Assembly (NCBI GenBank): GCA_937996685.1
Contig: CALKUP010000002.1
Span: 177,066 to 241,065 of the forward strand
Direction: 5' to 3'
DNA length: 64,000 nt
Source: an uncultured bacterium
GTDB lineage: Bacteria > Patescibacteriota > Patescibacteriia > UBA9570 > XYC2-FULL-38-9
Made by a program: the position numbers and the translations under genes
In this document: positions 13,475 through 60,350 of the stretch, in pieces
Numbering within the stretch: position 1 is the stretch's first letter
Layout: every line of letters begins with the position of its first letter
The notes under the pieces: model-generated
What the model saw: the letters and a program-made list of their open reading frames with translations, nothing else
Databases searched by the model: none
What the model was told of the DNA's origin: nothing

Positions 13475-13500
13475 TAGTCGCCTCTACAATAGGCGAATTC

Positions 13501-13540
13501 AGCGCCGTCAAAATTTTTCTCCACAGACGGCGCTTTTTTG
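13501..13540 (+). terminator. rho-independent terminator
   Basis: AGCGCCGTC...GACGGCGCT 9-bp stem followed by TTTTTT. Confidence 0.6.
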
Positions 13541-13747
13541 CCATAGACGGCATCTCTCTTCGTGAGAGATAATTGTTTATAGAAACAACGCGTTTTTGTT
13601 TTATTGAAAATAGGTCATTCATTAGGCGCAGCGCCGTGGTCCACCCTCGACTGTGATTGCCTGATGAATGTCAGGTGTCATGAAGCGTGTAGGCGAATCG
13701 TCGCTTGTATTGCTGAATGGCAACACCGATGCAGAAAGTGGTGCTTC

Positions 13748-14761
13748 ATGCGATTCATGTGGCATGTGCTGGGATTTCTGCTGCTGTTCTCCGGCTGTTA
13801 CCATCCGCCGGATTTGCAGCTCGAAGAGGTTCCTGCTGGAGTTGAAGGAGCGGTCGAAGACGACACGGGTCAGGTCTATGACCAGGTGCCGCCGCCGATC
13901 ACCTACAACCTCCCGTTCATGAGCGGCGAGAGCTTTGTTGCTGGAACGTACGCCGGGCACGTTGCCTGGGACTTCAACAAGGCGGGAACGACTGGGAATC
14001 AGGATTGCGGTGAGCCGGTGATTGCGGTTGCGACTGGACGAGTCGAAGCGGTGAATACCGGTTGTCCGAATATCGCGGCTGGCTCTCCTGGTGCGAATAC
14101 CGGGTGTGGCGGCGGCCTCGGCAACTACGTGCGCGTTGATCACGACAGCGACAACGACGATATGATCTACGCGCATCTTCAGCAACTGAACGTCGTCAAC
14201 GGTCAGTGGATTGAAGAAGGGCAGGTGCTTGGGTTGCTCGGGACGTCCGGCAATTCATCTGCGTGCCACCTTCACTTCGAGATGCGCAACGGCAGCAACC
14301 AGGCGTACTTGCCACTGTTCATCTGGGACGGCGGTTCTGGCGGTTTGACTGACGGCGTGACGCGTCGCAGTATCAACCACCACGAAATTGACCTGGCGAA
14401 GGTGCGGCTTGGCATCGCCAATGTCGCGAACCAGACGACCACGACGGCAACGCGACTCAACAACGGCTTGGGGTACAAGCTCGAGTATCGCGGTGGCGCG
14501 TTTGGTGATTGTGCGATCTACTACGAAGCGTTGGGTTGTGTAGGCGGCAACTTCTGCCCGAGCTACAACAATACTAACTTTGCGTGGTTGACGCGCGGCG
14601 CCATTCGAGCGACGTACAATGCGATGGGTGCGACCGGTAGCTGGCTCGGATTTCCGACTGGAAACGAGTATGCGTGGAGCAATGGGCAGCGCCAGAACTT
14701 CCGCAACGGCTATCTGTACTGGAATCGTGGCACCGGCGTGACCACGGCTTTCAGTTACTGA
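13748..14761 (+). CDS. M23 family metallopeptidase (lipoprotein), high-GC
   Basis: HxxxD (GHVAWDF) and HLHFE (HxH) LytM motifs; lipobox-like LLLFSGC after ATG 13748; ~60% GC. Confidence 0.65.
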   Translation: MRFMWHVLGFLLLFSGCYHPPDLQLEEVPAGVEGAVEDDTGQVYDQVPPPITYNLPFMSGESFVAGTYAGHVAWDFNKAGTTGNQDCGEPVIAVATGRVEAVNTGCPNIAAGSPGANTGCGGGLGNYVRVDHDSDNDDMIYAHLQQLNVVNGQWIEEGQVLGLLGTSGNSSACHLHFEMRNGSNQAYLPLFIWDGGSGGLTDGVTRRSINHHEIDLAKVRLGIANVANQTTTTATRLNNGLGYKLEYRGGAFGDCAIYYEALGCVGGNFCPSYNNTNFAWLTRGAIRATYNAMGATGSWLGFPTGNEYAWSNGQRQNFRNGYLYWNRGTGVTTAFSY

Positions 14762-28352: not shown

Positions 28353-28436
28353 TAAGATAAAAAGTGAGGGGTGCAGGCTCGCGAGAGAGATGTTTCACTC
28401 TTCCAAGAGCCCGCGTTTGTCTGAATGTGGTCAGAT

Positions 28437-28769
28437 CTAGCTGCGGATACGCGGCAATCCGCTATCAATCAGCCACTGATCAGGATCTGCCCCCTCCGGG
28501 CAGCTTGCAAGCGCGAGTCGCGCGGTGAGCGCGTGCGGGTCATCTGCTGGGTCGGGTCTCCAATCCGGGCCCGGAAGAACGGCCAACAGGTCTTCCGGAT
28601 GCACCTCGTCGAACGTCGTGTGGTGAGGCAGCGCCTGGCGGTGGGATCCGTCCGGGAGCAGATTCCCAGGGGTTACAACCGAACCCCCGATCCTGCGTAC
28701 TTCACGTTGTCTCTCTGCCAAAGGACACCTCCTGCCGAAAATAGTACTGATTCTTGCCAAAAAAGGCAA
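28437..28769 (-). CDS. hypothetical protein in ~65% GC island (TTG start; coding status uncertain)
   Basis: 110-aa ORF, D/P/A-rich, no ATG start or SD; island sits between divergent rpmE and rpsB promoters. Confidence 0.2.
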   Translation of the reverse strand: MPFLARISTIFGRRCPLAERQREVRRIGGSVVTPGNLLPDGSHRQALPHHTTFDEVHPEDLLAVLPGPDWRPDPADDPHALTARLALASCPEGADPDQWLIDSGLPRIRS

Positions 28770-29655: not shown

Positions 29656-30261
29656 ATGTCAATGGAAACAATTCAACAACTCCGTGCAGAAACAGGTGCT
29701 GGCATCATGGATGTCAAAGGTGCGCTTGATGAAGCGGGCGGAGATGCTACAAAAGCATTAGAAATTTTACGAAAACGTGGCGCTGCTGTTGCGCAAAAGA
29801 AAGCTGGTCGTGATGCTGGCGAAGGTGTTGTGATGAGTTATGTACACATGGGCCGCATTGGTGTTTTGGTTGAAGTGAACTGTGAAACAGACTTTGTTGC
29901 TCGCACAGATGATTTTCAAAATCTTGCAAAAGATATCGCAATGCAAGTTGCGTCAATGAACCCGCAATATTTGACTGCGGATAGTATCCCAGCTGAAGTG
30001 CTCGACAAAGAACGTGAAATCGCTCTCGCACAAATCGAAGGAGATAAGCCAGAAGAGGTGAAGACAAAAATTGTTGAAGGAAAAGTAAATAAATTTGCGT
30101 CAGAAGTGTCTTTGATGGAACAAAAATTCTTCCGTGATGATTCAATGACGATTCGTGAATTGGTTGAACAATCAATTGGAAAAGTCGGAGAAAACATTCA
30201 AGTGCGTCGATTCGTTCGCATGAGTCTTGACGACGCTGGCAAAACAACCAACGCGTGCTAA
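29656..30261 (+). CDS. tsf: elongation factor Ts (short form)
   Basis: ETGAGIMDVKGALDEAGGDATKALEILRKRGAAVAQKKAGR EF-Ts N-terminal UBA-like signature; downstream of rpsB. Confidence 0.85.
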   Translation: MSMETIQQLRAETGAGIMDVKGALDEAGGDATKALEILRKRGAAVAQKKAGRDAGEGVVMSYVHMGRIGVLVEVNCETDFVARTDDFQNLAKDIAMQVASMNPQYLTADSIPAEVLDKEREIALAQIEGDKPEEVKTKIVEGKVNKFASEVSLMEQKFFRDDSMTIRELVEQSIGKVGENIQVRRFVRMSLDDAGKTTNAC

Positions 30262-30270
30262 AATAAAGAT

Positions 30271-31092
30271 ATGCAAATAATCGATTGGGTTATTCTTGGA
30301 ACAATTATCGCAGCAATGGTATTACTTGCGGTTTTGGTGCGACGTAAATGGAAACAGTTGCTGCTGTTAGATCTTGCGGCAATGCCAAAAGCGAAGCTTC
30401 GTTCAAAGAAATACCAATTGATTCAAGGTCGGCTTGAGCGTCGCGCAACATCAATTCTTGGTGTCGCGTCTGGCGCTCTTGCTCCGATTGGGAAACAGAT
30501 TGCTGAGCAAGTGAAACGGTTGTATGAAGCTGTGGTTGCTCTTGAGCGGAAATACAATCTTGATCAACTGATGCCACAAAATCAGAAAGACAAGGAAAAG
30601 ACTCGTCAAAAAATTGTACAAATGCTCGAAGAAGGGGCGAGTTTGTTTCGTGATGAAAAATATACTGATGCCGAACAATTGTTTTTGGATGTGATTCGCG
30701 TGAATGATCGCGAAGTGCAAGCCTATGAATATCTTGGTGAAATTTATATGCAACGTCGTGAGTTTGAACATGCTATTGAAACATTGGAATTTGCAAAAAC
30801 ACTGTCTCCAGAAGATGATCGCATTCCATTTGATTTAGCGTCTATTTATCAAACACGAGGGGAATTAGAGCGCGCAAAGCGTTATTTAACGGAGTCGATT
30901 GAGCTTGCGCCAACGAATCCAAAAAATATTGACGCCTTACTTCGTCTCGCGATTGATATGAAAGATTTGCCAGTAGCTCGTGATGTGTTGAAACGGATGA
31001 AAGAGGTGAATCCGGAAAATCAGAAAATTGAAGAGCTGCAAGCAACTATTAAACAAATTGAAAAAGATTTGTTAGTGAATCCTGGAAAATAA
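30271..31092 (+). CDS. TPR-repeat protein with N-terminal TM anchor
   Basis: N-terminal hydrophobic helix; 3-4 TPR-like repeats (AYEYLGEIYMQRREFEHAIETLEFA...). Confidence 0.5.
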   Translation: MQIIDWVILGTIIAAMVLLAVLVRRKWKQLLLLDLAAMPKAKLRSKKYQLIQGRLERRATSILGVASGALAPIGKQIAEQVKRLYEAVVALERKYNLDQLMPQNQKDKEKTRQKIVQMLEEGASLFRDEKYTDAEQLFLDVIRVNDREVQAYEYLGEIYMQRREFEHAIETLEFAKTLSPEDDRIPFDLASIYQTRGELERAKRYLTESIELAPTNPKNIDALLRLAIDMKDLPVARDVLKRMKEVNPENQKIEELQATIKQIEKDLLVNPGK

Positions 31093-31093
31093 A

Positions 31094-31408
31094 TTAGGCA
31101 AGGTGAAGTCGTTTCGATAGTCGTTGATAATTTGCTGTGTTTGCGGCAATTTCAGCATCATGTCGATCGACTTTTTTTGCGATCCCTTCCATTGTATCGA
31201 GCATTTGCGCTTGTTGACCTTCAACAGCGGTGAGTCGAGTGTCGATATTTTTTGTTGTGTCTTGCAGGTCTAAAATCATCAGTGTGTGTTGTTGTTGCAC
31301 CTCTTTTATTTCCTGAATTTCTTCTCTTACGATTTTTCGTGTCTCCGTTTGTACAATAGTTGTAATAGCGGATAATAGTTCGGTGTCGAGTGATTTTTTC
31401 TTTTGCAT
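31094..31408 (-). CDS. hypothetical coiled-coil protein
   Basis: 104 aa, heptad-rich, convergent with the TPR gene; no known domain. Confidence 0.3.
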   Translation of the reverse strand: MQKKKSLDTELLSAITTIVQTETRKIVREEIQEIKEVQQQHTLMILDLQDTTKNIDTRLTAVEGQQAQMLDTMEGIAKKVDRHDAEIAANTANYQRLSKRLHLA

Positions 31409-31604
31409 AAAACGGTCATAGATTGCTTATGATAGCAAGGGTGGTGACAGAAATCGTATCACATGAGCGGGGGAAAGAATAGAGGGCAAAAAAGCGCCGT
31501 CTGGGGAGAAAAATTTTGACGGCGCATAATGTGCCTTGTTTATCGAATGCTTGAAATATTCGCGGTTATTCGCTACACTATTGAAGCTGTATTTTGCAGC
31601 ATAG

Positions 31605-31680
31605 GCCGTTTTAGCTCAGTCGGTAGAGCGTCACCATGGTAAGGTGGAGGTCTCGGGTTCGATCCCCGAAAACGGCTCCA
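31605..31680 (+). tRNA. tRNA-Thr (anticodon GGU)
   Basis: Cloverleaf: acceptor GCCGTTT/AAACGGC, D-arm GCTCagtcggtaGAGC, anticodon stem TCACC/GGTGG with loop AUGGUAA, T-arm TCGGG-TTCGATC-CCCGA, encoded CCA end. Confidence 0.85.
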
Positions 31681-31718
31681 ATTTTTTGAATAATGATTAA
31701 TTATTTTTCGGTTTTTAG

Positions 31719-31747
31719 TTGACAGAATATTGAAAATATGTTATTTT
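31719..31747 (+). promoter_or_regulatory. putative promoter TTGACA-N17-TATTTT driving the GC-rich unit downstream of tRNA-Thr
   Basis: -35 31719-24, -10 31742-47. Confidence 0.35.
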
Positions 31748-31885
31748 ATCACGTCAATCTGTTTTAGATTGACCGTGCAAAAAAAGGGGTGTCTTCATGC
31801 TGATTTCTTTACTGATCCTTCTTCTGGTTCAAGTCGAGCTGGGCTTGGGGTCCCGAAGGGTCCGGAAGCGATAGTGGGGCTGTGC

Positions 31886-32266
31886 ATGAACGGCGTCGTG
31901 GTGACGGCAAATAACGGAATGATGCCGCACGTGCCGATAGTTGACACTCCTCTGAACATCGACCTCATTGTGCCGGACGCAGTGTGTCCGTACGTGCTTC
32001 CTGTTGGCTATGCTATAGCCAAGTCAGAGGAGGAGGTTCCACGGCCTAGAATGGAAGCGCAAGAAGCGCGTCTCTGGTGGCTGGGGGACATCTTCCCTGT
32101 GAGTCTTTGCATGAGTCGGAAGGAGTCCTACACGCTTACGTGGAGCGCTGGAGACATCGTTGCGTTAAGTGGCCTCCTTGTCATTTGCGGCTACGGTTTC
32201 ATAGAGATTGTACGTCGCGTGAGAAGTGTGTGGCAGGTCATTCGTCACAGGCTCTCGAAAGCCTGA
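31886..32266 (+). CDS. hypothetical GC-rich protein (~126 aa), preceded by a 25-codon hydrophobic mini-ORF (31797-31874)
   Basis: Elevated GC3 in this frame (ccg/gtg/gac codons), GGGG SD-like run before ATG 31886, strong terminator 25 nt downstream; no domain recognised. Confidence 0.3.
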   Translation: MNGVVVTANNGMMPHVPIVDTPLNIDLIVPDAVCPYVLPVGYAIAKSEEEVPRPRMEAQEARLWWLGDIFPVSLCMSRKESYTLTWSAGDIVALSGLLVICGYGFIEIVRRVRSVWQVIRHRLSKA

Positions 32267-32290
32267 CGTATTCGCCGTGCACCCCCTCGT

Positions 32291-32331
32291 CCCCGTTTAG
32301 CGTCTTCATCGATGCGACGGGGCCTTTTTTT
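32291..32331 (+). terminator. rho-independent terminator (CCCCGT...ACGGGG + T7)
   Basis: CCCCGTttagcgtcttcatcgatgcgACGGGGCCTTTTTTT. Confidence 0.65.
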
Positions 32332-32526
32332 AATATTTATATATATGGATATAATTCAGCTCGCGCCAGACGCTGTTGCGAAATAACGCGCTAGTAATTT
32401 GTGCAATCGATATATATTTATTATACTTCTTTTATGAAATTCCTTTCAGCAGCTCAATCTACAACGACTACCGCCATTCATCTCATGGTTGGGTAGTTTT
32501 GTTTTGAACTTCGTTGAAAGTAAACT

Positions 32527-32552
32527 CGCCCCAATCATGGGGCGTTTTTGTT
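32527..32552 (+). terminator. rho-independent terminator (CGCCCC aatcat GGGGCG TTTTT)
   Basis: 6-bp GC stem followed by T-run; closes a ~120-nt unit that starts after the putative promoter TTGTGC-N17-TATACT (32393-32421). Confidence 0.5.
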
Positions 32553-32596
32553 GCCGTGAAAGTGGTAATAAAAAATCACAGGATAAGGAGTAGACA

Positions 32597-33094
32597 ATGT
32601 CTACTATTCCGTTGGCTTGTCTTGATCCGCAACGGTCGGATCGTGACGGTGTGATGGTGTCGATTCAATTTCAGCCGATGGGAGTGACCCTCAACGGCTG
32701 GAATTCACGCGGTTCTTACGTGGCGTACATCTTCGAAGATAATGAGTGGAATCCGATTCTGGCGCCTGTTCCGGATGGGTCTGGGCGTTATGCTGTCATC
32801 GGCGGGATGAGCTGGTTCGACGAAGACATGATCGCACTCGCGAACGGCAAAATGACTCAGGCGATTCCGCGTTCGCGTGCGTGGACCTTCTCTCATCAGT
32901 CGCCGTCGGAGATGTGTGAGTTGATGCGAGTCTACTTCCAGCGTCGCATTCTGCAGGCCGCGTCTGTGCGTCCGGGACTGCTTCCGTCGTACGCCGACAA
33001 CCGGCTGGCGAATCTGGACTACGCCGCCTTCATGAATGAGGCAAGCCGCTACCATGAGGCGGTGTACGCTTTCTGGAAGCAGTTCGAGGCGTGA
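32597..33094 (+). CDS. hypothetical protein (165 aa), GC-rich
   Basis: Strong SD AAGGAG 7 nt upstream of ATG; ~58% GC; no recognised domain. Confidence 0.45.
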   Translation: MSTIPLACLDPQRSDRDGVMVSIQFQPMGVTLNGWNSRGSYVAYIFEDNEWNPILAPVPDGSGRYAVIGGMSWFDEDMIALANGKMTQAIPRSRAWTFSHQSPSEMCELMRVYFQRRILQAASVRPGLLPSYADNRLANLDYAAFMNEASRYHEAVYAFWKQFEA

Positions 33095-33231
33095 TCCGTG
33101 ATTGAGAGGTGAGGAGGGAACGAGTTTGCTTGTGGTGATGAAAGTTGCCTTGAGTAAGCTCGTATTTTTTTATTTGATTTTTGGATAATCAAAACAGCTG
33201 AGAAGGTGAGCGCGAAATAAATATGAAGGGA

Positions 33232-34417
33232 TTATTGCGGCTTTTGAATATATTGATTTCGCATTTTAATAAATGCCGTGAACATTAAAATAAAGAGCGT
33301 GATGGTTGCTATCTGGAATGCGAGTTGTAGACCTCCTTTGTCTGCAATTCGACTAAAGATAAGAATGAGTACAGTTTCTGTAATGCTGACTGCAAAATTT
33401 TGAAGTGATATAACAGTCGTACGCTGTTCTGATGTGATGTGTGCATTCAGTTCATCGTTCAGTGTTACTCTCAACATCCAGTAGCCAATCTATAATAATC
33501 ATACTTATCGGCAGCCATACACCCTTTCCTATGCTCACAGTTATAAATCCAATAAGTATGATACACAGCATGCCGGCAATACTTTGCATGATTGTAAAAT
33601 ACCCATCAAGCCAATGTGCTATCTCTGAGGCGAGTCCAGACAATACACGAAGTACGGTATAAAAAAGACCGAAATATATAATATTTAGACCAGATAATTG
33701 AAGTAGTGGTTGCGCGTAGTCCCCAAAGATATACCAAAAGATTGTCACTACTGTGAATAAGAGAATTATTGAAGATACATACGGGATAGATCTGATCTGT
33801 CGAAAAGCTTCTCCAAGATGTCTGGAGAATTGTAGTTGAGGAGCAATAATAGTTTCTTCGGCTGTTTTTGGTGGCTCGGTGGTGAGGTATGCGGCAACGA
33901 ATGATATAGCAAAAAAAGCAACAGAAATAATAAATGGGAGCTTTTGATTATACTCATAGACAAGCGGAGTTATTGAAAGCACCGCAGCGCTTGTGAGCAG
34001 TGTTAGGAATGAGAGACGTCCACTTACTTTTTTGTATTCTTTTTTTCTATGAAGGTCAGTAAGTGTGTCATATAGCATTGCTTCTGTTGTGCCGGATAAA
34101 AACGCACCCCCAATGCCATAAAAGATTGCTGCAACCAAAAAGGGGACAAAGCCGTTGCCTATTGTTAATAATATGCCATAAATAATAGCAAAGGTTGATG
34201 CAAGGATGAGTGATAGGCGTTTCCCATATTTATCCGCAAAGATGCCTCCGGGAATTTCTGTGAGAATTGATGCTATGGTAGCTGCGGCTGCTATACATCC
34301 CAATTGAGTAAAGGAAATACTGTACGAAAGGATATACAGTGTGATAACCGGAAAAGCAAACCGCTTAATAAAAAAGCCGTGTAAAAAAAGGAGGGTGATG
34401 TTGCGTTGTAGTTTCAT
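33232..34417 (-). pseudogene. MFS transporter interrupted by a frameshift near 33452-33477
   Basis: 339-aa N-terminal part (10 TM, MFS-like) ends at 33452; an overlapping 81-aa ORF in another frame (33232-33477) encodes the last two TM helices. Confidence 0.5.
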
Positions 34418-34421
34418 TGGT

Positions 34422-35357
34422 TTATTGCAGTCCCGCTGTTGTATTTGTAATAATATCAAGCGAATCCGCAACGCCTCCCAATAACGGCTCTTTCATGTGT
34501 AGAGCAAGAATCGTTTTTGAATCGTGATCATCTCTCGTGATATCTGCAGTGAAGTCTTTTGTCCTCGCTTGGCCGTTCTGCGGCACAACGACAATTGCCG
34601 CTTCTTTCATTGAACCGTGATCACCTGGAGAGTCGCCAAAGTAAATCATTGCAGCATCTGTGCCAATTGCATCATGCAGCGCCGCTTCCTTTCCGCCGCC
34701 TTTTGGAAATATGTCAATTGAAGATGGTGCTTTTATCACAACAAAATCACCAGCCATGCCGCGGTCTTGTAGATATGACTCGACTTGTTCAAGGGCCGTA
34801 TCCGGATTGTGTCCTTCCGGCCACACCAATCCAATGCAGTGATGCAGTTTATATGCGCGCCAACCGTTTTCTATAAAACGCGTTTCAATGTCAGGCTTAA
34901 TCTGTAATAACGCTTCAGCATCTGTTGGTGTAATAGTGGAGGGAAATGTCTCGGCGTCTCCACGGACAATACTAAAACCACTTTCTGCAATAATGACCTC
35001 TGGTTCAATAGAAGGAAATAGGGTTTTTACTAAAGCGCGGACAAATTCGACGCTGCGTCCAGTGCTGAGCCCGAAATGAAAGCCTTGTGCGAGTGCTTTT
35101 TGAATGGCTGCTTGAATGCGGAGTACTGCTTCTTTGTTTTCTTCAAAATGCGCAGCGATGTTTTCCGGGGTGTGTTTGTGTTCAATAAAAATCCCATCAA
35201 CATCAAACAGCAGCCATGCGGGCTTTCCGTCTCTATTTTCCGGAGAAAGGCTTGTTTCGTGAAATAGCGCTTGCAGTGCTGCGGGAATTTGCCCAAGTTC
35301 ATCTTCAGGGATCGAGGGTTCAATACGTTTGCCTCGAAAATAGCTGTTTTCTATCAT
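34422..35357 (-). CDS. HAD-IIB (Cof/sucrose-phosphatase-like) hydrolase
   Basis: Motif I LLFDVDGIF, motif IV GDSPGDHGSMKEA; 311 aa. Confidence 0.55.
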   Translation of the reverse strand: MIENSYFRGKRIEPSIPEDELGQIPAALQALFHETSLSPENRDGKPAWLLFDVDGIFIEHKHTPENIAAHFEENKEAVLRIQAAIQKALAQGFHFGLSTGRSVEFVRALVKTLFPSIEPEVIIAESGFSIVRGDAETFPSTITPTDAEALLQIKPDIETRFIENGWRAYKLHHCIGLVWPEGHNPDTALEQVESYLQDRGMAGDFVVIKAPSSIDIFPKGGGKEAALHDAIGTDAAMIYFGDSPGDHGSMKEAAIVVVPQNGQARTKDFTADITRDDHDSKTILALHMKEPLLGGVADSLDIITNTTAGLQ

Positions 35358-35410
35358 GGTGTCAGTGTAGCATAATATCTAAATCATGATAAAATACTAA
35401 GATAAGAAAA

Positions 35411-35443
35411 GGGTTCCAGGTTCGAATCCCGACAACGGCTCCA
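35411..35443 (+). other. tRNA 3'-end fragment (T-loop plus acceptor 3' strand plus CCA), partial duplicate of the tRNA-Thr 3' end
   Basis: GGTTCGAATCCCGACAACGGCTCCA vs tRNA-Thr 3' end GGTTCGATCCCCGAAAACGGCTCCA (22/25 identical); no 5' half present. Confidence 0.6.
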
Positions 35444-35444
35444 T

Positions 35445-35870
35445 ATGAACACACGAGAAGAGATTAAGCGTTATATTGATAGTCAGCCCGACGCAAAGCG
35501 CGACGACATGCAAGCCCTGGATCGGATGATTCGAAAGCTGCTCCCAAAATGCAAGCTCTGGTTTTTGGACGGCAAAAACAGCGAAGGGAAAATCGTTTCT
35601 AATCCGAATATTGGATATGGATTGCAGACCATGAAGTTAGCCGGTGGGAAAACGAGGGAGTTTTATCAAATTGGTTTGAGTGCAAACACTACTGGTATTT
35701 CCGTGTATATTCTTGGTATTGAAGACAAGAAATATTTGGCGAACACATACGGCAAAACAATCGGCAAGGCGAGTGTGAGCGGGTATTGCATTAAGTTTAA
35801 AACACTGAAAGATATTGACGTTGACGTGCTTGGAAAGGCGATTTTGGATGGGGTTAACGCGGTGCTATAA
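35445..35870 (+). CDS. DUF1801 (YdhG-like) domain protein
   Basis: 141 aa with YdhG-like pattern; ATG immediately after the tRNA fragment. Confidence 0.4.
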   Translation: MNTREEIKRYIDSQPDAKRDDMQALDRMIRKLLPKCKLWFLDGKNSEGKIVSNPNIGYGLQTMKLAGGKTREFYQIGLSANTTGISVYILGIEDKKYLANTYGKTIGKASVSGYCIKFKTLKDIDVDVLGKAILDGVNAVL

Positions 35871-35956: not shown

Positions 35957-36700
35957 ATGACCAAGCCAGATTACGCAGAATTTGATAACCCACGCCTTGC
36001 AAGAGTATATGATAGTTTTAATTCTTTGACTGATGACCGGGTATTTTGGTTGGATAAGCTCAAAGAGCTGGGAGTGCAACGCATAATAGACGTAGGATGT
36101 GGAACAGGCTTGCTAACATGCGAATTAGCACAACTTGGCTATACAGTAGTTGGTGTAGAGCCCGCGCAGGCGATGCTTAAGCTTGCTCAAGAAAAAGAAG
36201 GAGCGAAGAAGGTTATGTGGTTACTAGGCAGTACCGAGCAGCTTCAAGGTCAAAAAGCAGATATGGTTATTATGACAAGTCATGTCGCACAGTTTTTTGT
36301 TAGCACTGAAGAATGGCATAAGGCATTGGCAAATATCTATGAAGCGTTGGAAAAAAGAGGGGTGATTCTTTTTGACAGCAAAAATCCATTGAGTGCGCCA
36401 TGGAAAAATTGGAGCAAAGAGAATACACAACGAACAAAAACTACACCAGAAGGAGAAGTTGTATTTTGGATTGACGCGCCTGTTGTTAGTGGGAATCAAG
36501 TGGAATATGAATTGCATTATCTGTTCTCAAAAGATTCAGAAGAGCTTGTTTCAAAAAATGCACTAGCATATCGCCCCAAGGATCAAATAATGGAAGACTT
36601 GAAAACAGCGGGCTTTCAGGTTGAAAATGTATACGGGAATTGGAACGGGGATGAGTACAGCGAAGACAGTGAGGAAATAATTTTTTTAGCGAAGAAATAG
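35957..36700 (+). CDS. class I SAM-dependent methyltransferase
   Basis: VIDVGCGTGLLTCELAQLGYTVVGVEP SAM-binding motif. Confidence 0.6.
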   Translation: MTKPDYAEFDNPRLARVYDSFNSLTDDRVFWLDKLKELGVQRIIDVGCGTGLLTCELAQLGYTVVGVEPAQAMLKLAQEKEGAKKVMWLLGSTEQLQGQKADMVIMTSHVAQFFVSTEEWHKALANIYEALEKRGVILFDSKNPLSAPWKNWSKENTQRTKTTPEGEVVFWIDAPVVSGNQVEYELHYLFSKDSEELVSKNALAYRPKDQIMEDLKTAGFQVENVYGNWNGDEYSEDSEEIIFLAKK

Positions 36701-36777
36701 GAGAAAGTGGCTTGAGTTTATATTTAACTCATGACAATCAAAAATATTATAAAAAATAATTCTTTAAATCGTTTATT

Positions 36778-37155
36778 TTATTTAACGTACATGAAAGATT
36801 GCGGTGGGTGTTGAATTTGAAAGTCTTGCTTTAAGCACAGGGGTTTATTATACCGTTCCACAAATTTTATTTTAATTGCATGTCCCTGGGACTTGCCTAA
36901 AAAATAACTATCAAAAAAACTTTTTGTAATACCAGAGTCTTCTTTGGTTTGTCTCCAAAGTTTCGTAGGCGATTCTGATATGACATTTTCAATTTCAAAT
37001 TCACCTATAACTTTTTGTACTGGATAAGATGCATACACTATCACCCTAGTTATTTCAGGATTTTTAAATAAAATTTTTCTAAACTCATATTTTTTTGACC
37101 CCTCAAAAATCTTTTCCGCGTATTCGGGTTTAATCGACAATAATACTTTCATCAC
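36778..37155 (-). CDS. ASCH (PUA-like) domain protein
   Basis: MMKVLLSIKPEYAEKIFEGSKKYEFRK start typical of the ASCH beta-barrel; ~30% GC; 5' end overlaps the 3' end of the upstream PIN-fusion gene by 26 nt. Confidence 0.55.
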   Translation of the reverse strand: MMKVLLSIKPEYAEKIFEGSKKYEFRKILFKNPEITRVIVYASYPVQKVIGEFEIENVISESPTKLWRQTKEDSGITKSFFDSYFLGKSQGHAIKIKFVERYNKPLCLKQDFQIQHPPQSFMYVK

Positions 37156-38653
37156 TTTTGGATTCTTTTATTATTTTCATGAAATGATCCCAAGGAATTT
37201 TTTGAAAACCCCTTGGCATATTTGTGACACTTTGTATTATACCTAAATCAATTAATTTAGCTAGATTGATTCGTCTAGGTAAAGAGTACGCGTATAGAAA
37301 ATTTAATACAAATGGTCTATATTTTGGATTTTTATTCCACATTTTTACTAGTCCTGCTTGATCAAAAACTGAGCGTTTTCTGCAGGCACGTATAAATTCA
37401 ACAGGGTCTTTAATGTTGTCGATGACAGAGTCTACGATTCCAATCGTGGTTACGACACCGTCTCTAAAGCCACCATTTCTATAGAAGACAATAATATCAC
37501 CGGGCTTCATAGTTCGCGTTGGAGCGTGTGATATATAAGGCTTACTAATGGCGTTTCTATGTGGTTGTTGTTCAATAAAACCAAGGGGGGACTCGGTCTT
37601 TAAAATTGAATCGGGAAAAAATTCTGTATGATAGACCTGATTTATGCAGGTAAAGTATACATCGGCATTCTTTTTAACGAAGGGGTAGCTAGATTTTGGT
37701 TCGTCTAGAGATGGTTGAGTATTTATGAATTTTCTAACATATACTCGTTCATCACCATTGGTGGTTTTTTTTATTCCCCAGAACTTAAAGCCGTACTGTT
37801 CTAGTAAGAAGATAAGACTCCCGTGGGCATGTGTTTTTTCAAATATAGTCACATAAATCTCATCCACTTTATATTGTAACGCATTATCAAAAATAATTTT
37901 AATGAATCGTTCTCCAATTTTTAAACCGGTAACTTGTACTTTTAAAGTGCCGATCTTTAGTCTTTTTTTTGGTAAAAATACAGGTGTTATATTGTGATAA
38001 CTTTCGGATTGAGATTCTAGTTTTATATAAAGAAAGGCCTCAAGGTTCCCGTCATCTTCATATACATACGCTGTTTCTTCAGACTTCGAGTTAAACCATT
38101 CGTCAAACTCCTCGTAATCTGCTCTAAAACTATCAAAAAAAGTATCTTGTAGATTGATCTCTCCAAATAATTTCTTTTGTACAGATTTTACTCTGTAATC
38201 AACTAGACTAGGATTTTCCGTTATTATTTTTTCAAGTAGTTTTTCGACAGTGTAAATTTTATCATCGATATTCAAGAGTGCGGCTTTTTTGTGTATCTTT
38301 AGGTCATCCGTAATCAAGCAATCAACGCGATTGCTGTAGACCTCATTTAGAAGGGTTGAGTCATTGATGTCATTTTGATTTTTGTCATGTTCAGCAGAGA
38401 TTTTTTGCACTTCTGGGCTAATCTGCGCTGGCGACTGAATCGTATAATAATTATCAGACTTGACTTGCATTGCCTGCACGACCTTGGGGTCAGCATGGTT
38501 TGATAATTCAGACCTAGTTATTGGATGGATGCACTTTTTATAGCCAAGTTGGTCGAGCCAATAAAAAAGACGGCCAATATCTTCATGTCTCACATATCTA
38601 CCCTCGCGACTCACAATAACATTTGTATCAAGTAATATCTTTATATTTGTCAT
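37130..38653 (-). CDS. PIN-domain protein fused to a GNAT-like central region and a C-terminal EVE/PUA-like domain
   Basis: N-terminal PIN (ILLDTNVIV...DCLITDDLKIHKKA acidic residues); central LKIGERFIKIIFDNA...LLEQYGFKFWG resembles a GNAT fold; C-terminal KPGDIIVFYRNGG...GVVTTIGIVDSV resembles EVE/PUA; ~30% GC. Confidence 0.45.
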   Translation of the reverse strand: MTNIKILLDTNVIVSREGRYVRHEDIGRLFYWLDQLGYKKCIHPITRSELSNHADPKVVQAMQVKSDNYYTIQSPAQISPEVQKISAEHDKNQNDINDSTLLNEVYSNRVDCLITDDLKIHKKAALLNIDDKIYTVEKLLEKIITENPSLVDYRVKSVQKKLFGEINLQDTFFDSFRADYEEFDEWFNSKSEETAYVYEDDGNLEAFLYIKLESQSESYHNITPVFLPKKRLKIGTLKVQVTGLKIGERFIKIIFDNALQYKVDEIYVTIFEKTHAHGSLIFLLEQYGFKFWGIKKTTNGDERVYVRKFINTQPSLDEPKSSYPFVKKNADVYFTCINQVYHTEFFPDSILKTESPLGFIEQQPHRNAISKPYISHAPTRTMKPGDIIVFYRNGGFRDGVVTTIGIVDSVIDNIKDPVEFIRACRKRSVFDQAGLVKMWNKNPKYRPFVLNFLYAYSLPRRINLAKLIDLGIIQSVTNMPRGFQKIPWDHFMKIIKESKSDESIIVD

Positions 38654-38827
38654 ATATCAAACACTAGCAAAAAAAGAATATAATTCCTAGTTATGGCATG
38701 GAATATCCCATATAATTGGGTCAGTAGTATATCATTTTAACTATTATAAAAGTATCGGAACTTTTTCTATTATATATATTCAAATACGCCTCTTATAATT
38801 CCCAAGAGAATAGTGTAGTCTATAGAC

Positions 38828-40824: not shown

Positions 40825-40899
40825 ATACGTACAGTATAGCAGGGTATTGTAAAAATTGCCTACTGCTGTTAAGATGCTCCCGCTTTAAAGGAAAGGCTC

Positions 40900-41169
40900 A
40901 TGACCAACCGAGATTGCCCGCCGCATCTTGGCACTGGAGTCACTCCAAAAGACTCGACGTGTCATGATCATGCGAGCGCTGCTCAACAGGGCTTTCATAA
41001 CCTGCATTGCCGGCTCATCGGCTGTCCGTACGCAAAACCAGGTCTTGAGCGTCACGGAGACACCCTGATTATCAAGCCGCGGAATTGGTTAGAGGACTTG
41101 CTGTTGAAGCTTGATCCTTTGATCAATGCCGCCCGTCGTTTCCACGTGTTCATTCGGAGGAAGTCATGA
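40900..41169 (+). CDS. hypothetical Cys/His-rich small protein, GC-rich
   Basis: GGAAAGG SD before ATG; stop overlaps next gene start (ATGA); ~58% GC. Confidence 0.35.
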   Translation: MTNRDCPPHLGTGVTPKDSTCHDHASAAQQGFHNLHCRLIGCPYAKPGLERHGDTLIIKPRNWLEDLLLKLDPLINAARRFHVFIRRKS

Positions 41170-41462
41170 AGATAGCGGAGATTGCGGCGCTTCTGAGCGA
41201 TCCTGCCACCCGCCGGTTGCTGGCAGAGGGCATTGGGATCATCAAGATCTTGAAGGACAACAAACGCCTCACACCAGAGGCTGTGCAAGCCGTGGTTGAC
41301 GGCATTGAGCCGCTCAAGAGGCTTGCGGCGTCTCAGGTGCATGCACGAGAGATCATGGAGAGCATCGACCTCCTTGTGAAGCTCTTGATGAAGCCTGGAG
41401 GACTTGCAGCCTTGCGGCACTTCGCGAGGTCTTTCGTCGATCTCATCGAAAACCCTCTGTGA
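41166..41462 (+). CDS. hypothetical small helical protein, GC-rich
   Basis: Translationally coupled (ATGA overlap) to the 40900 ORF. Confidence 0.35.
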   Translation: MKIAEIAALLSDPATRRLLAEGIGIIKILKDNKRLTPEAVQAVVDGIEPLKRLAASQVHAREIMESIDLLVKLLMKPGGLAALRHFARSFVDLIENPL

Positions 41463-41515
41463 TGAACACGTTCGTCTGAGGGTTCGTTTTTTTATCAGAA
41501 AGAAATGAGGCAAAT

Positions 41516-41545
41516 AAAAAACCCGCATTGCTGCGGATTTTTTAT
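41516..41545. terminator. bidirectional rho-independent terminator
   Basis: AAAAAACCCGCattgcTGCGGATTTTTTAT; lies between cspA (minus) and the GC-rich pair (plus). Confidence 0.6.
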
Positions 41546-41569
41546 AATCAAGTGTTGAATGAACGTTGC

Positions 41570-41770
41570 TTATGCAGCAAGTTGTACGTCAACGGCGCGT
41601 GGTCCTTTGTCTGATTGTTCTACTTCGAATGAAACAGTGTCTCCGATGTTGAGTTCATTATATGATACGCCAACGAGTGCAGAAGAATGGAAAAAGATTT
41701 CTTTTTCTTGACCTTCAGCTGCGATAAAGCCGAAGCCCTTATCTGTCATGTTTTTGATAGTTCCTACCAT
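41570..41770 (-). CDS. cspA: cold-shock protein (CspA family)
   Basis: GTIKNMTDKGFGFIAAEGQEKEIFFHSSAL RNP1/RNP2 motifs; 66 aa. Confidence 0.9.
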   Translation of the reverse strand: MVGTIKNMTDKGFGFIAAEGQEKEIFFHSSALVGVSYNELNIGDTVSFEVEQSDKGPRAVDVQLAA

Positions 41771-41952
41771 AGTGTTTACGTTATATTCTGACTAAATTAT
41801 ACAAAAAGTTGAGTTTGAAGTTTGATTACGCTTCGCAGATCTCCTTATTGACCCGACCATTATTACATATTTTTTTAAAATTGTCAAATGCATTGCACTG
41901 TCGCCCTGTGTAAAATCCCGTATATACGAAAAGTCTGCTATACTCACTGTCT

Positions 41953-43367: not shown

Positions 43368-44045
43368 ATGGCACTGAATCATCTCGCGATCATTGCGGAT
43401 GGCAATAGGCGCTTTGGAAGGGCTCGGGGAGGCACCGGTTCTGACGGACATCAAAAAGGCGCAGACAATACGGATGTCATTTTGCGCTGGTGTCGAAACA
43501 ACGAGGTGTCGTATCTGACGCTGTACTTGTTCTCGCTCTATAATTGGGAGCGACCGCCTGACGAAGTGGCGTTTCTCATGCGGCTCATCAAGCACTTTTG
43601 CGAAAGCAAAAAAGCGGAGTTGCTACAAGACAACGTGCGGGTGTGCGTCATCGGGAATCTCGCTGACCCACGGTTTCCGGACGAAACCCGCGCAGCAGTC
43701 GAGTGTCTGGTCGCGGCGACAGCAGGTTGCACAGGCTTGACCCTCATTCTCGCGCTGTCATACGACGGTGTTGACGAAGTGCGACGCGCCGGGAAGCGCT
43801 GGCAGGCGAGCGACTGCTCTGGGGAAGTGACGGATTTTCTCGACACAGCATTGCTCGGCATTCCAGATCCCGACCTCGTTCTCCGGACAAGCGGTGAGCA
43901 GCGCCTGAGTGGCTTCTTGTCACTCCAGGCGAGTTACGCAGAGCTCATGTTCGTGGATGCGGCATATCCCGAGCTGAGTGTCGAAGTGCTCGACAGTGTC
44001 ATGGCGGCTTTTCAGCAGCGCGATCGACGCTTCGGAAAACGGTAA
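43368..44045 (+). CDS. uppS: undecaprenyl diphosphate synthase (cis-prenyltransferase), high-GC
   Basis: HLAIIADGNRRFGR, LTLYLFSLYNWERP, RTSGEQRLSGFL, FQQRDRRFG; ~60% GC. Confidence 0.8.
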   Translation: MALNHLAIIADGNRRFGRARGGTGSDGHQKGADNTDVILRWCRNNEVSYLTLYLFSLYNWERPPDEVAFLMRLIKHFCESKKAELLQDNVRVCVIGNLADPRFPDETRAAVECLVAATAGCTGLTLILALSYDGVDEVRRAGKRWQASDCSGEVTDFLDTALLGIPDPDLVLRTSGEQRLSGFLSLQASYAELMFVDAAYPELSVEVLDSVMAAFQQRDRRFGKR

Positions 44046-58068: not shown

Positions 58069-58917
58069 TTGTATATGAAAAAAGAAATTATAGAATCTCT
58101 TACAAATAACTTTGAATCGTACGCTAATAAAACTGATGAAGGCGTTGAATTTTGGTTGGCTCGAGATTTACAACAGTTATTAGGATATGGTAAATGGGAT
58201 AACTTTTTGAAAGTCATCGCTAAGGCAAAGATAGCCTGCGAAACAACAGGTCATGTAGTTGCCGATCATTTTGCCGACGCCGGGAAAACGATCGGCATGC
58301 CTAAAGGTGCTCAAAAAGAGATATTAGATATAATGCTTACTCGATATGCGTGCTATTTGATCGCTCAAAATGGTGATCCGCGTAAAGAAGAGGTTTCGTT
58401 CGCACAAAACTATTTTGCACTCCAAACAAGGAAGTTAGAAATCATTGAAAAAAGAATTCAGGATTCCGAGAGATTGTTAGCGCGCCATAAGTTAGTTGAA
58501 ACCGAGAAAATGCTTTCCAGTGTTATTTTTCAACAAACAGGAAGTAATAAAAATTTTGGTTTAATACGAAGTAAGGGTGATAAGGCATTATTTGGTTACA
58601 GTACAGTACAAATGAAAAATAAGCTTGGTGTTCCAAAAACAAGACCGTTGTCAGATTTTCAGCCAACAATTATTTTAAAAGCTAAAGATTTTGCGACTGA
58701 AATTACAATTTTTAATACAAAAGAAAAGGGCTTGGCCACCGAGGAAGGAATTTCTGAAGAGCATGTCACGAACAACAGAAGTGTCAGAAAAACCCTCATA
58801 TCACGTGGTATTTACCCTGAAAATCTGCCCCCAGAAGAGGACATTAAAAAGCTTGAGCGCAAAATGAAGTCTGAGGAGAAAAAGGGATTAAAGAAACCAG
58901 AGACGCTTGATGTGTAA
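58069..58917 (+). CDS. DNA-damage-inducible protein D-like (Bro-N domain) protein
   Basis: GVEFWLARDLQQLLGYGKWDNFLKVIAKAKIACE matches the DinD/Bro-N N-terminal signature. Confidence 0.5.
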   Translation: MYMKKEIIESLTNNFESYANKTDEGVEFWLARDLQQLLGYGKWDNFLKVIAKAKIACETTGHVVADHFADAGKTIGMPKGAQKEILDIMLTRYACYLIAQNGDPRKEEVSFAQNYFALQTRKLEIIEKRIQDSERLLARHKLVETEKMLSSVIFQQTGSNKNFGLIRSKGDKALFGYSTVQMKNKLGVPKTRPLSDFQPTIILKAKDFATEITIFNTKEKGLATEEGISEEHVTNNRSVRKTLISRGIYPENLPPEEDIKKLERKMKSEEKKGLKKPETLDV

Positions 58918-58950
58918 GTGTTAATTTTGAATAAGTAAAAAGATTAGATT

Positions 58951-60350
58951 ATGACAGCCCAAGAAACACAAATAATTACCTTTGATTGTAAAAACTTATT
59001 CCCAGTTTTTGAAGAGCATTTAAAAATTGAAAATAATTCACGGGTATTTTTTTTCCGCAAAATATGGGACAGGGAAAACATATTTTTTAAACCAGTTTTT
59101 TCAAGACAGTGAAGACTATGAGGTTTTTCATCTATATCCGGTAGATTACCAGATCGCATCAAATGAAAATATTATTGATTTTTTAAAAGCTGATATTTTA
59201 GTTGAGCTTCAGAAAAAACACAACGGGATTATTGAGCCTAATGATTATAGTAACTTTCTCGATCTTCAAAGGCTTTTATATGTCTGGAGCAAAGACCATG
59301 TTGTTGATATTTCCAAATTTATTGGGAGTCATGTGTCACGATTAGCATTATTAGGCAAGCCATTTAAAGATGTTGTAGATTTAACAGAGAGTTTTTTGAG
59401 CTTTAAAAAACAAATTGAATCTGGAGACAAAGGCCGTGTTGAGAATTTTTTAAAGGATTTAAAAAACAAAAAGATTTCTGAAGCTGATCCAATGAGTGAT
59501 TTGTTAAAAAGCAAAATTGAATTGGTTAAAGAAAATAAAAAAAGTGTTTTAGTACTAGATGATTTAGACAGAATAGACCCACAACATGTTTTTCGTATGC
59601 TCAACTGTTTTTCTGCTCATTTTGACTCAAGCAATAATGAGCTCCCAAATAAGTTTGGTTTTGATGTTATTGTTTTGGTTGGCGATTTTGCAAACTTAAA
59701 ATCTATTTTTCACCATATGTATGGTAGTGAAACTGATTTTAATGGTTATTTTAATAAATTCTTCTCACGTGAAATTTTTCAGTTTAATAATAATCAGATA
59801 ATTTTCGATAGCTTAAGTCAAGTTATTTCAGCTTTTCCACACCACTCAACTTACAATGATGGCTTTATTAAAAAATGGATTTATTTTTATTTTAGCAGAA
59901 CTTTTATTAAAAAATGGCTTAGATTTAAATATTATTAGCACTAGACAAATTTTAAAAGGGGTCGGCTTTAAAATTCCCAGACTTTTAAGAACGTATAATT
60001 ATCCTCAAAGTGAACGACGAGTGTTAGATATTGACATGGTTCTTGATATTTTGGAAATAATATGCGGAGGTCTAAAGATAGACCTAATTGACTTTTTAGG
60101 TAAAATAAAAAATGCACATTTCAATAATGATGATATTCGTCGATTGCGTGAGTATTATATTAAGCCACTATTAAAAAAAGCAATAAAAAATTTAACAACT
60201 CATTCAAATGTCCCAACTCGTTGGCAAGGGTATGTTATTTATTTTAATGATCAAGGTGATTTACAAAGCGTCACGCAATCTAATTCGGGATCAAAATACG
60301 AGCATTTATTCCTTGACTTGCTCATCGATCATATTAAACAAAATCGTTAA
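58951..60350 (+). pseudogene. KAP-family P-loop NTPase disrupted by two homopolymer frameshifts
   Basis: Walker A SAKYGTGKTYFL and KAP-type Walker B VLVLDDLDRIDP; reading frame shifts at T8 run (59046-59053) and at an A/T run near 59870-59900, splitting the gene into three ORFs; ~28% GC. Confidence 0.55.

Follow-up and report, generated by a model that had tools for sequence, protein, structure and literature searches.

Islands that integrate into transfer RNA (tRNA) genes, or tDNAs, are marked at their ends by a regenerated tDNA and a displaced tDNA fragment (PMC4383910). The only enzymes known to target tDNAs are tyrosine integrases, and the Islander approach of Hudson, Lau and Williams to the mapping of such islands requires an integrase gene (PMC4383910). 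Integrases of this kind use three sublocations within the tDNA, including an asymmetric site at the 3' end (the class of Williams 2002, summarised in 10.1101/2020.11.02.365908), and a report on phage mv4 describes integration of this phage at the 3' end of tRNA-Ser (10.1101/2023.11.06.565760). Cis-mobilizable elements (CIMEs) are decayed integrative and conjugative elements (ICEs) or integrative and mobilizable elements (IMEs) which still retain attL and attR and have lost the genes for integration and transfer (PMC5704250). Here we analyze a stretch of 64 kb (hereafter, the window) from contig CALKUP010000002.1 of an uncultured Patescibacteriota bacterium, in which a tRNA-Thr(GGU) gene and a tRNA-Thr-like piece bracket a segment of 3,763 bp. 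This segment, which is polymorphic within the species, is probably an integrase-less islet that entered the very 3' terminus of tRNA-Thr(GGU) by site-specific insertion.

The target gene, tRNA-Thr(GGU) (31605-31680, plus strand), is intact, encodes its CCA and lies on the attL side of the segment; it is the sole tRNA gene that ARAGORN detects in the window (as tRNA-Thr(GGT)), and Rfam concurs (RF00005, 65.8 bits). A repeat search of the window recovered a direct repeat between 31649-31680 and 35412-35443, with 26 of the 32 positions matching and the two copies spaced 3,763 nt apart. Over its last 25 nt, the tRNA gene matches 35419-35443 on the same strand at 22 positions, the runner-up on either strand of the window matching at 16, and the number of matches at 22 or more of the 25 positions that is expected by chance is about 8e-5 (binomial, 128,000 sites). 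A generic pattern running from the T-loop to the CCA has exact matches in the window at the tRNA gene and at this distal piece only. The mismatches between the two fall on tRNA positions 59, 60 and 66, all of them 5' of the longest exact block in common, which consists of the final 10 nt, AACGGCTCCA (left copy, 31671-31680, tRNA positions 67-76; right copy, 35434-35443, within the attR-side piece; both on the plus strand). The tRNA-Thr-like piece as a whole extends over 35403-35443 on the plus strand and lacks the 5' half of a tRNA; as read from the sequence, the 5' strand of its T-stem upstream of G52 is not conserved, so that the piece would be unable to fold as a T arm.

The same locus without the segment is present in a conspecific genome. 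A cluster look-up with the TPR protein encoded directly upstream of the tRNA gene yielded one near-identical protein, the contig of which (L084; GCA_054403235.1, 2,115 nt) contains, in this order, tsf', the TPR gene, a gene for a 104-aa protein and tRNA-Thr. In L084, the tRNA gene ends in ...GGTTCGATCCCCGAAAACGGCTCCA and is immediately followed by TATGAACATACGAGAAG..., that is, by the start of the DUF1801 gene (CCA and then TATGAAC...). Positions 1-2004 of L084 align by blastn with 29677-31680 of the window at 99.35% identity (13 mismatches), and positions 1980-2115 align with 35419-35554, such that the 111 nt past the junction correspond to 35444-35554, with 3 mismatches. In a three-way alignment of the junctions, attL coincides with the empty site on the left and attR coincides with it on the right, the switch occurring exactly at the end of the CCA; the segment missing from L084 is accordingly 31681-35443 (3,763 bp), and the 10-bp repeat makes the limits of the island equally writable as 31671-35433. 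With a slash at the boundary, the junctions read ...GAAAACGGCTCCA/ATTTTTTGAATAATG for attL, ...CCCGACAACGGCTCCA/TATGAACAC for attR and ...GAAAACGGCTCCA/TATGAACA for attB, and the predicted attP reads ...GGTTCGAATCCCGACAACGGCTCCA/ATTTTTTGAATAATG. L084 thus shows the site vacant in a related genome, the boundary falling at the end of the tDNA, and the 3' end of the L084 tRNA gene is that of the intact resident tRNA of the window, not the variant found in the fragment. When about 15 billion sequences are clustered at 90%, most proteins of the island end up in single-member clusters, and the proteins of the island are therefore not found in the other assembly.

The DUF1801 gene of the right flank (35445-35870, plus strand) has a Pfam match to PF08818 that lies under the gathering score (E = 1.4e-4) and is 97% identical to its L084 counterpart over 36 aa by tblastn. 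In the empty site, the ATG of this gene is located 1 nt past the tRNA CCA (CCA-T-ATG; L084 2002-2008) and, likewise, in the window it is 1 nt past the CCA of the fragment (35441-35447). In the empty site, the DUF1801 gene would probably be cotranscribed with the tRNA and, once the 3' end has been processed, would have almost no leader; in the window, this gene would be cut off from the tRNA promoter by the island.

We next consider the distal piece itself. A metagenome scan with a degenerate 25-mer produced 21 loci, 19 of which are complete tRNA-Thr(GGU) genes, and six of these 19 (L086, L088, L099, L101, L103 and L104) end in exactly the fragment sequence, GGTTCGAATCCCGACAACGGCTCCA (the variant sequences of the fragment being GAATCCCGACAAC and GAAUCCCGACAAC). 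The piece at 35419-35443 is, then, identical at all 25 positions to the 3' ends of tRNA-Thr(GGU) genes from other bacteria of the same broad lineage; that these loci belong to this lineage follows from the presence, in most of them, of an upstream homologue of the TPR gene with 23-33% identity (five of the six loci with the exact fragment, in the fetched sequence). Over 41 nt, the fragment matches the L086 tRNA at 36 positions, comprising all of the last 25 nt and 11 of the 16 upstream positions (P ~0.0016), versus 30 positions for the resident tRNA. All 19 metagenome tRNA-Thr(GGU) genes have the acceptor pair GCCGTTG/CAACGGC. The acceptor of the resident tRNA is GCCGTTT/AAACGGC, with perfect pairing, into which, as judged from the letters, the C66 of the fragment would introduce a U7-C66 mismatch. 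Given that the resident variant is the one found in the empty site, duplication is confined to the last 10 bp; most likely, the host sequence that was duplicated is AACGGCTCCA or less, and the rest came with the element.

These results bear on an earlier prediction made from the sequence of the window alone, which described a tRNA-Thr gene and a copy of its 3' end, matching at 22 of 25 positions, as the attL and attR footprint of site-specific integration, and proposed a search for a related genome in which tRNA-Thr directly precedes the DUF1801 gene. The repeat is confirmed by ARAGORN, Rfam and the repeat search, and such a genome has now been found in L084, at 99.35% identity over 2,004 nt. 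The part of this prediction that concerns insertion stands, given the exact empty site, whereas the part that derives the distal piece from the resident tRNA end does not, inasmuch as this piece matches a foreign tRNA-Thr at 25 of 25 positions and the empty site has the resident variant.

The island is devoid of recognizable mobility genes. A six-frame Pfam scan of 31681-35443 detected the MFS and HAD families only, and no integrase, recombinase or transposase; scans against Pfam, PHROG and NCBIfam revealed no relaxase, transfer or recombination genes in the island. The PHROG matches are limited to generic MFS (E = 4e-11) and hydrolase (E = 4e-5) families. The island DNA had no match among 50,697 phage records and no match among plasmids, and searches of viral contigs with both 25-mers, the predicted attP junction and the HAD protein likewise returned no match. 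A prophage remnant was considered and rejected for lack of phage genes. With respect to an insertion sequence (IS) or transposon, there is no transposase, and the best end-to-end inverted match (12 of 15) is non-terminal and located in AT-rich, promoter-like DNA.

The sequence of events that would best account for these data is as follows. The element would have carried its own tRNA-Thr-like arm, with 25 nt identical to the 3' end that is canonical for tRNA-Thr(GGU) in related bacteria and a weaker resemblance extending to ~41 nt. If the arm is such an element-derived mimic, the crossover has to be placed in the last 10 bp: strand exchange would have occurred 3' of position 66, inside AACGGCTCCA (the acceptor 3' strand and CCA). 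The resident tRNA would have been left unchanged (attL), and at the far end (attR) the arm of the element would have been linked to the 10-mer of the host, immediately ahead of the DUF1801 gene that formerly abutted the tRNA. The recombinase, presumably a tyrosine integrase, would either have been lost after integration or have acted in trans, which would make the islet equivalent to a CIME. The cargo, under this scenario, would be a mosaic of a host-like HAD/MFS operon, with the MFS gene frameshifted, and two GC-rich genes of foreign composition, namely, a DUF5317 remnant and a rare 165-aa protein with its own terminator/antiterminator leader. The insertion had been described as old and decayed, which is not demonstrated: strains that are 0.65% apart differ by the island, two of its four genes, those for the HAD protein and the 165-aa protein, are intact, and the sole clear lesion is a 1-nt frameshift in the MFS gene.

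Several observations weigh against this scenario. Not only is the island free of integrases, recombinases and transposases in every frame, but homologues of the tyrosine recombinase of metagenome contig L094 (described below), sought with phmmer, and the HxLRH motif are also absent from the window open reading frames (ORFs) of at least 60 aa, across the entire 64 kb. The original claim that there is no integrase is thus borne out for both the island and the window, and the enzyme is, as a consequence, hypothetical. Searches of viral contigs, phages and plasmids yielded neither an attP junction nor a copy of the island. The variant present in the resident tRNA occurs in none of the metagenome contigs, so that its nativeness rests on acceptor-stem pairing and on a single sister strain. 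Only two genomes cover the site, and gain of the island here and its loss in the sister strain are, therefore, both possible; the 10-bp repeat could also support a recombinase-independent deletion. An outgroup tRNA-Thr locus is lacking because the clusters of Tsf, RpsB and PrfA are all single-member; the best Tsf matches in a scan of genome contigs are 50-59% identical and come from many phyla, and the best RpsB match is to a Patescibacteria metagenome-assembled genome, at 52% identity.

Among the rival explanations, one holds that the island is ancient, the distal piece being the displaced ancestral 3' end of the host gene and the present 3' end of the tRNA having been supplied by the island; the crossover would then have taken place in the T-loop or the anticodon loop, a compensating G7-to-U change would later have arisen in the 5' acceptor strand, and the sister strain would have lost the island through deletion between the 10-bp repeats. 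This agrees with the textbook view that regeneration of the gene is due to the island, the displaced fragment stemming from the host (PMC4383910), and the occurrence of the GCCGTTG/CAACGGC variant of the fragment in all 19 metagenome tRNA-Thr(GGU) genes means that this variant is possibly ancestral. Long residence would fit with the missing integrase, with HAD and MFS genes that resemble the host in composition and with the pseudogenes. In its favor, too, is the distribution of differences between the two strains, with 5 in 211 positions within ~100 nt of the junctions compared to 11 in 1904 further away (post hoc Fisher p = 0.016); this distribution, based on small numbers, also hints that one of the alleles arrived via homologous exchange between strains. 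However, this explanation calls for three extra events, that is, a mismatched attP copy, the compensation at position 7 and a deletion that made use of precisely the final 10 bp. Excision by a site-specific route would leave the fragment variant in the empty site, whereas L084 has the resident one, and the strains are only 0.65% apart. We consider an ancient island unlikely, albeit worth keeping in mind. Slightly more doubtful still is a variation on insertion whereby the islet remains active and non-autonomous, being excised and integrated by a tyrosine recombinase that would be encoded elsewhere in the genome or on a visiting element. If true, an active islet would explain the exact presence and absence between near-identical strains, and the islet would also be a landing pad on which genes rich in GC arrive from high-GC donors, one of these genes bringing an undescribed terminator/antiterminator leader RNA.

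Explanations that dispense with a mobile element altogether fare considerably worse. The distal piece resembles tRNA-Thr over ~41 nt and the HAD and MFS genes are host-like in composition, as would befit a decayed second tRNA-Thr gene in tandem, with ordinary chromosomal genes in between. Yet, the sister strain lacks exactly the interval from CCA to CCA and shows no trace of a second tRNA, the distal piece has no 5' half and an unconserved T-stem 5' strand, two genes in the interval are compositionally foreign, and bare 3' fragments of tRNA-Thr are found in other genomes, in one case adjoining an integrase, all of which makes a second tRNA gene very improbable. Even less credible is an assembly artefact, either a block of 3.8 kb spliced in at a conserved tRNA or a collapsed repeat posing as the empty site of L084. 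Both sequences seem, from the names of the records, to come from metagenome-derived or highly fragmented assemblies, and L084 is only 2,115 nt long and ends 111 nt beyond the junction. Nevertheless, the junctions share 10 exact bases (22 of 25 overall), which would be below any usual assembly k-mer, and a repeat this short renders collapse or chimerism implausible; furthermore, both flanks derive from the same organism and are contiguous in L084, and the distal piece is a fragment rather than a whole foreign tRNA gene. Site-specific insertion of an islet thus remains the explanation that we favor.

The island opens with an AT-rich non-coding left arm (31681-31796, plus strand) containing a promoter-like site oriented toward the first cargo gene (TTGACA-17-TATTTT, 31719-31747), which matches 10 of 12 positions in the promoter scan and is a consensus match only. 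The first gene (31775-32266, plus strand) is GC-rich and DUF5317-like (Pfam PF17248, E = 8.8e-6), the best-scoring match spanning only profile positions 108-149 of 151; a hydrophobic mini-ORF of 25 codons (31797-31874) lies in a different frame from the DUF5317-like ORF. This gene is probably degraded at its 5' end, a weakly supported conclusion, and a homology search with its protein found nothing beyond the query.

The second gene, orf165 (32597-33094, plus strand), also GC-rich, encodes a 165-aa protein of a very rare family: a word-index search of 5.8 billion sequences found one other homologue (52% identity), and four turned up when 1.84 billion representatives were searched exhaustively. 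Pfam, PHROG and NCBIfam all lack a match for this protein, and a PDB fold search with its AlphaFold model (predicted local distance difference test score, pLDDT, 70.7) gave no match at E <= 0.001. The relatives of orf165 are distant and reside on short contigs of 44-57% GC with uninformative context. Upstream of orf165 lies a conserved non-coding leader of ~95 nt (32458-32552, plus strand), which is conserved upstream of all four orf165 homologues, with unalignable flanks (also at L081 1400-1500, L107 ~478-592 and L108 1-98). A terminator scan placed in the leader a terminator hairpin with a T-run (32527-32544), and an upstream segment, CATGGTTGGG (32485-32494), is able to pair with the left arm of this terminator. 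RNAalifold predicts this pairing as a long-range helix that would compete with the terminator; of its 12 pairs, 2 differ on either side (5 of 15 for the predicted structure in full), and CUAC-rich repeats precede the predicted structure. Rfam has no match for the leader, which is a candidate attenuator or riboswitch-like element.

The remaining two genes are on the minus strand. The MFS transporter gene (33232-34471; Pfam MFS_1, E = 3.4e-19) is split by a frameshift into two ORFs (33452-34471 and 33232-33477), and removal of any one base within 33454-33492 yields a single ORF of 412 aa; the phrog_2034 profile is covered only to position 318 of 406. The gene for a HAD-IIB hydrolase (34422-35357; Cof / sucrose-phosphatase-like; Pfam Hydrolase_3 and S6PP, NCBIfam TIGR00099 and TIGR01484) is intact and overlaps the start of the MFS gene, so that the two likely form one operon, to go by the family names probably an operon for a sugar-phosphate phosphatase and a transporter. 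A homology search with the HAD protein detected no close homologue.

We computed the GC content at third codon positions (GC3) for 54 ORFs of the window (median 0.38). The only outliers inside the island are the DUF5317-like gene (GC3 0.57, z = 3.0) and orf165 (GC3 0.68, z = 4.5); the MFS gene (z = -0.6) and the HAD gene (z = -0.1) are host-like. Of the initial characterization of the island as a compositionally foreign segment with GC-rich genes, a frameshifted MFS transporter and a HAD phosphatase, the gene content agrees with the GC3, ORF and Pfam checks; the foreign composition applies to ~1.4 kb only, and not to the MFS and HAD genes. GC-rich single genes also occur elsewhere in the window, outside any tRNA-bounded island, at 795-2555, 13604-14761, 41052-41528 and 43368-44045 (GC3 0.60-0.75), and encode, respectively, an alpha-amylase-like protein, an M23 peptidase with an LGFP repeat, an unknown 158-aa protein and undecaprenyl-diphosphate synthase. 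Such genes are therefore a general feature of this genome, not one particular to the island, and these four suggest repeated gene-sized uptake from high-GC donors. The block that houses the 158-aa gene (40843-41933) is missing in the relative L082. Upstream of the GC-rich M23 peptidase gene, at ~13491-13542, there is a second copy, with 90% identity and on the opposite strand, of a 52-nt sequence that is found upstream of the tRNA gene (~31485-31536) and includes the hairpin GCGCCGTC...GACGGCGC.

Other features of the window lie apart from the islet. An AT-rich two-gene module (36700-38808) consists of an ASCH-domain gene (36778-37155) and a gene for a 507-aa protein (37130-38653), both with strong matches to phage families (phrog_3136, E = 2.4e-46; phrog_6345, E = 8.7e-84). 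L082 and L083 are without the ASCH module, the methyltransferase gene being directly followed by the SOUL gene, and no flanking repeat was seen. Between rpmE and rpsB, a patch of ~360 nt (28360-28720) reaches 63% GC and contains ORFs of ~110 aa on both strands; it has no match in Rfam and may be a foreign gene fragment or an unknown RNA. An AT-rich block at 58069-60350 (29-37% GC), which contains a Bro-N domain gene together with a gene for a P-loop NTPase of the KAP family, the latter spread over two overlapping ORFs, looks like another mobile or defence-type insertion.

The islet at tRNA-Thr amounts to base-precise gain or loss of genes at a tDNA, in a lineage of which hardly any relatives have been sequenced, and island finders that require an integrase would miss an element of this kind. 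It also illustrates that a displaced tRNA fragment can be something other than a duplicate of the host's own gene; here, the fragment is best read as the mimic, carried by the element, of a related tRNA.

As regards elements with the same target, neither a plasmid search nor the phage and viral contig searches turned up a related complete element, and the nearest parallel comes from metagenomes. On L094 (OCTA010003876.1, a metagenome contig of 13.2 kb), a tRNA-Thr(GGU) 3' fragment of ~50 nt is immediately followed by a tyrosine integrase gene (PF00589, E = 2.9e-29; the region spans 258-1271) and then by an ORF that, judged by eye from its translation, is resolvase-like. The L094 fragment starts at the anticodon stem and has no 5' half, and the ends of the contig do not overlap; by its organization, L094 is a candidate for a complete element that targets the same tRNA. 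It resembles the islet in the type of target tRNA and in its arm, GGTTCGATTCCCGACAACGGCTCCA, which differs by 1 nt from the fragment of the window in the last 25, and differs in that it encodes its own integrase and has no similarity to the cargo or flanks of the window beyond the tRNA-like match. Another contig, L090, with 62% GC, contains a bare 25-nt tRNA-Thr fragment. Neither of the two shares cargo with the window; together, they indicate that elements using the tRNA-Thr end, with integrases, exist.

Compared with the described classes, the islet shares with CIMEs the att-like sites on both sides (a 10-bp exact repeat within a putative attL/attR repeat of 25 nt with 88% identity), the absence of recombination and transfer genes, the location at a tRNA 3' end and the small, cargo-only content. 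It differs from them in that ICE or IME ancestry is not demonstrable, in that no ICE or IME with a matching integrase was seen in the 64 kb, and in that the host of the islet belongs to a seemingly unrelated, sparsely sampled lineage and not to the streptococci. As with the tyrosine integrases that use the asymmetric 3' end, the crossover would be located within the final 10 bp, and the tRNA remains intact; unlike those systems, the islet has no enzyme that could be assigned to a family, and the crossover would be placed by three differences. With respect to the tDNA islands of Islander, the islet lacks a tyrosine integrase inside, is only 3.8 kb long and has a distal piece that, save for the last 10 bp, seems to be derived from the element and fits a foreign tRNA-Thr better (25 of 25) than the resident one. 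Like these islands, it has an intact tRNA gene at one end (31605-31680), a directly oriented cognate 3' fragment at the opposite end (35419-35443), boundaries defined to the single nucleotide, an empty site and a partly foreign composition. The islet, then, belongs to a known kind of element, the mechanism and class of which are well known.

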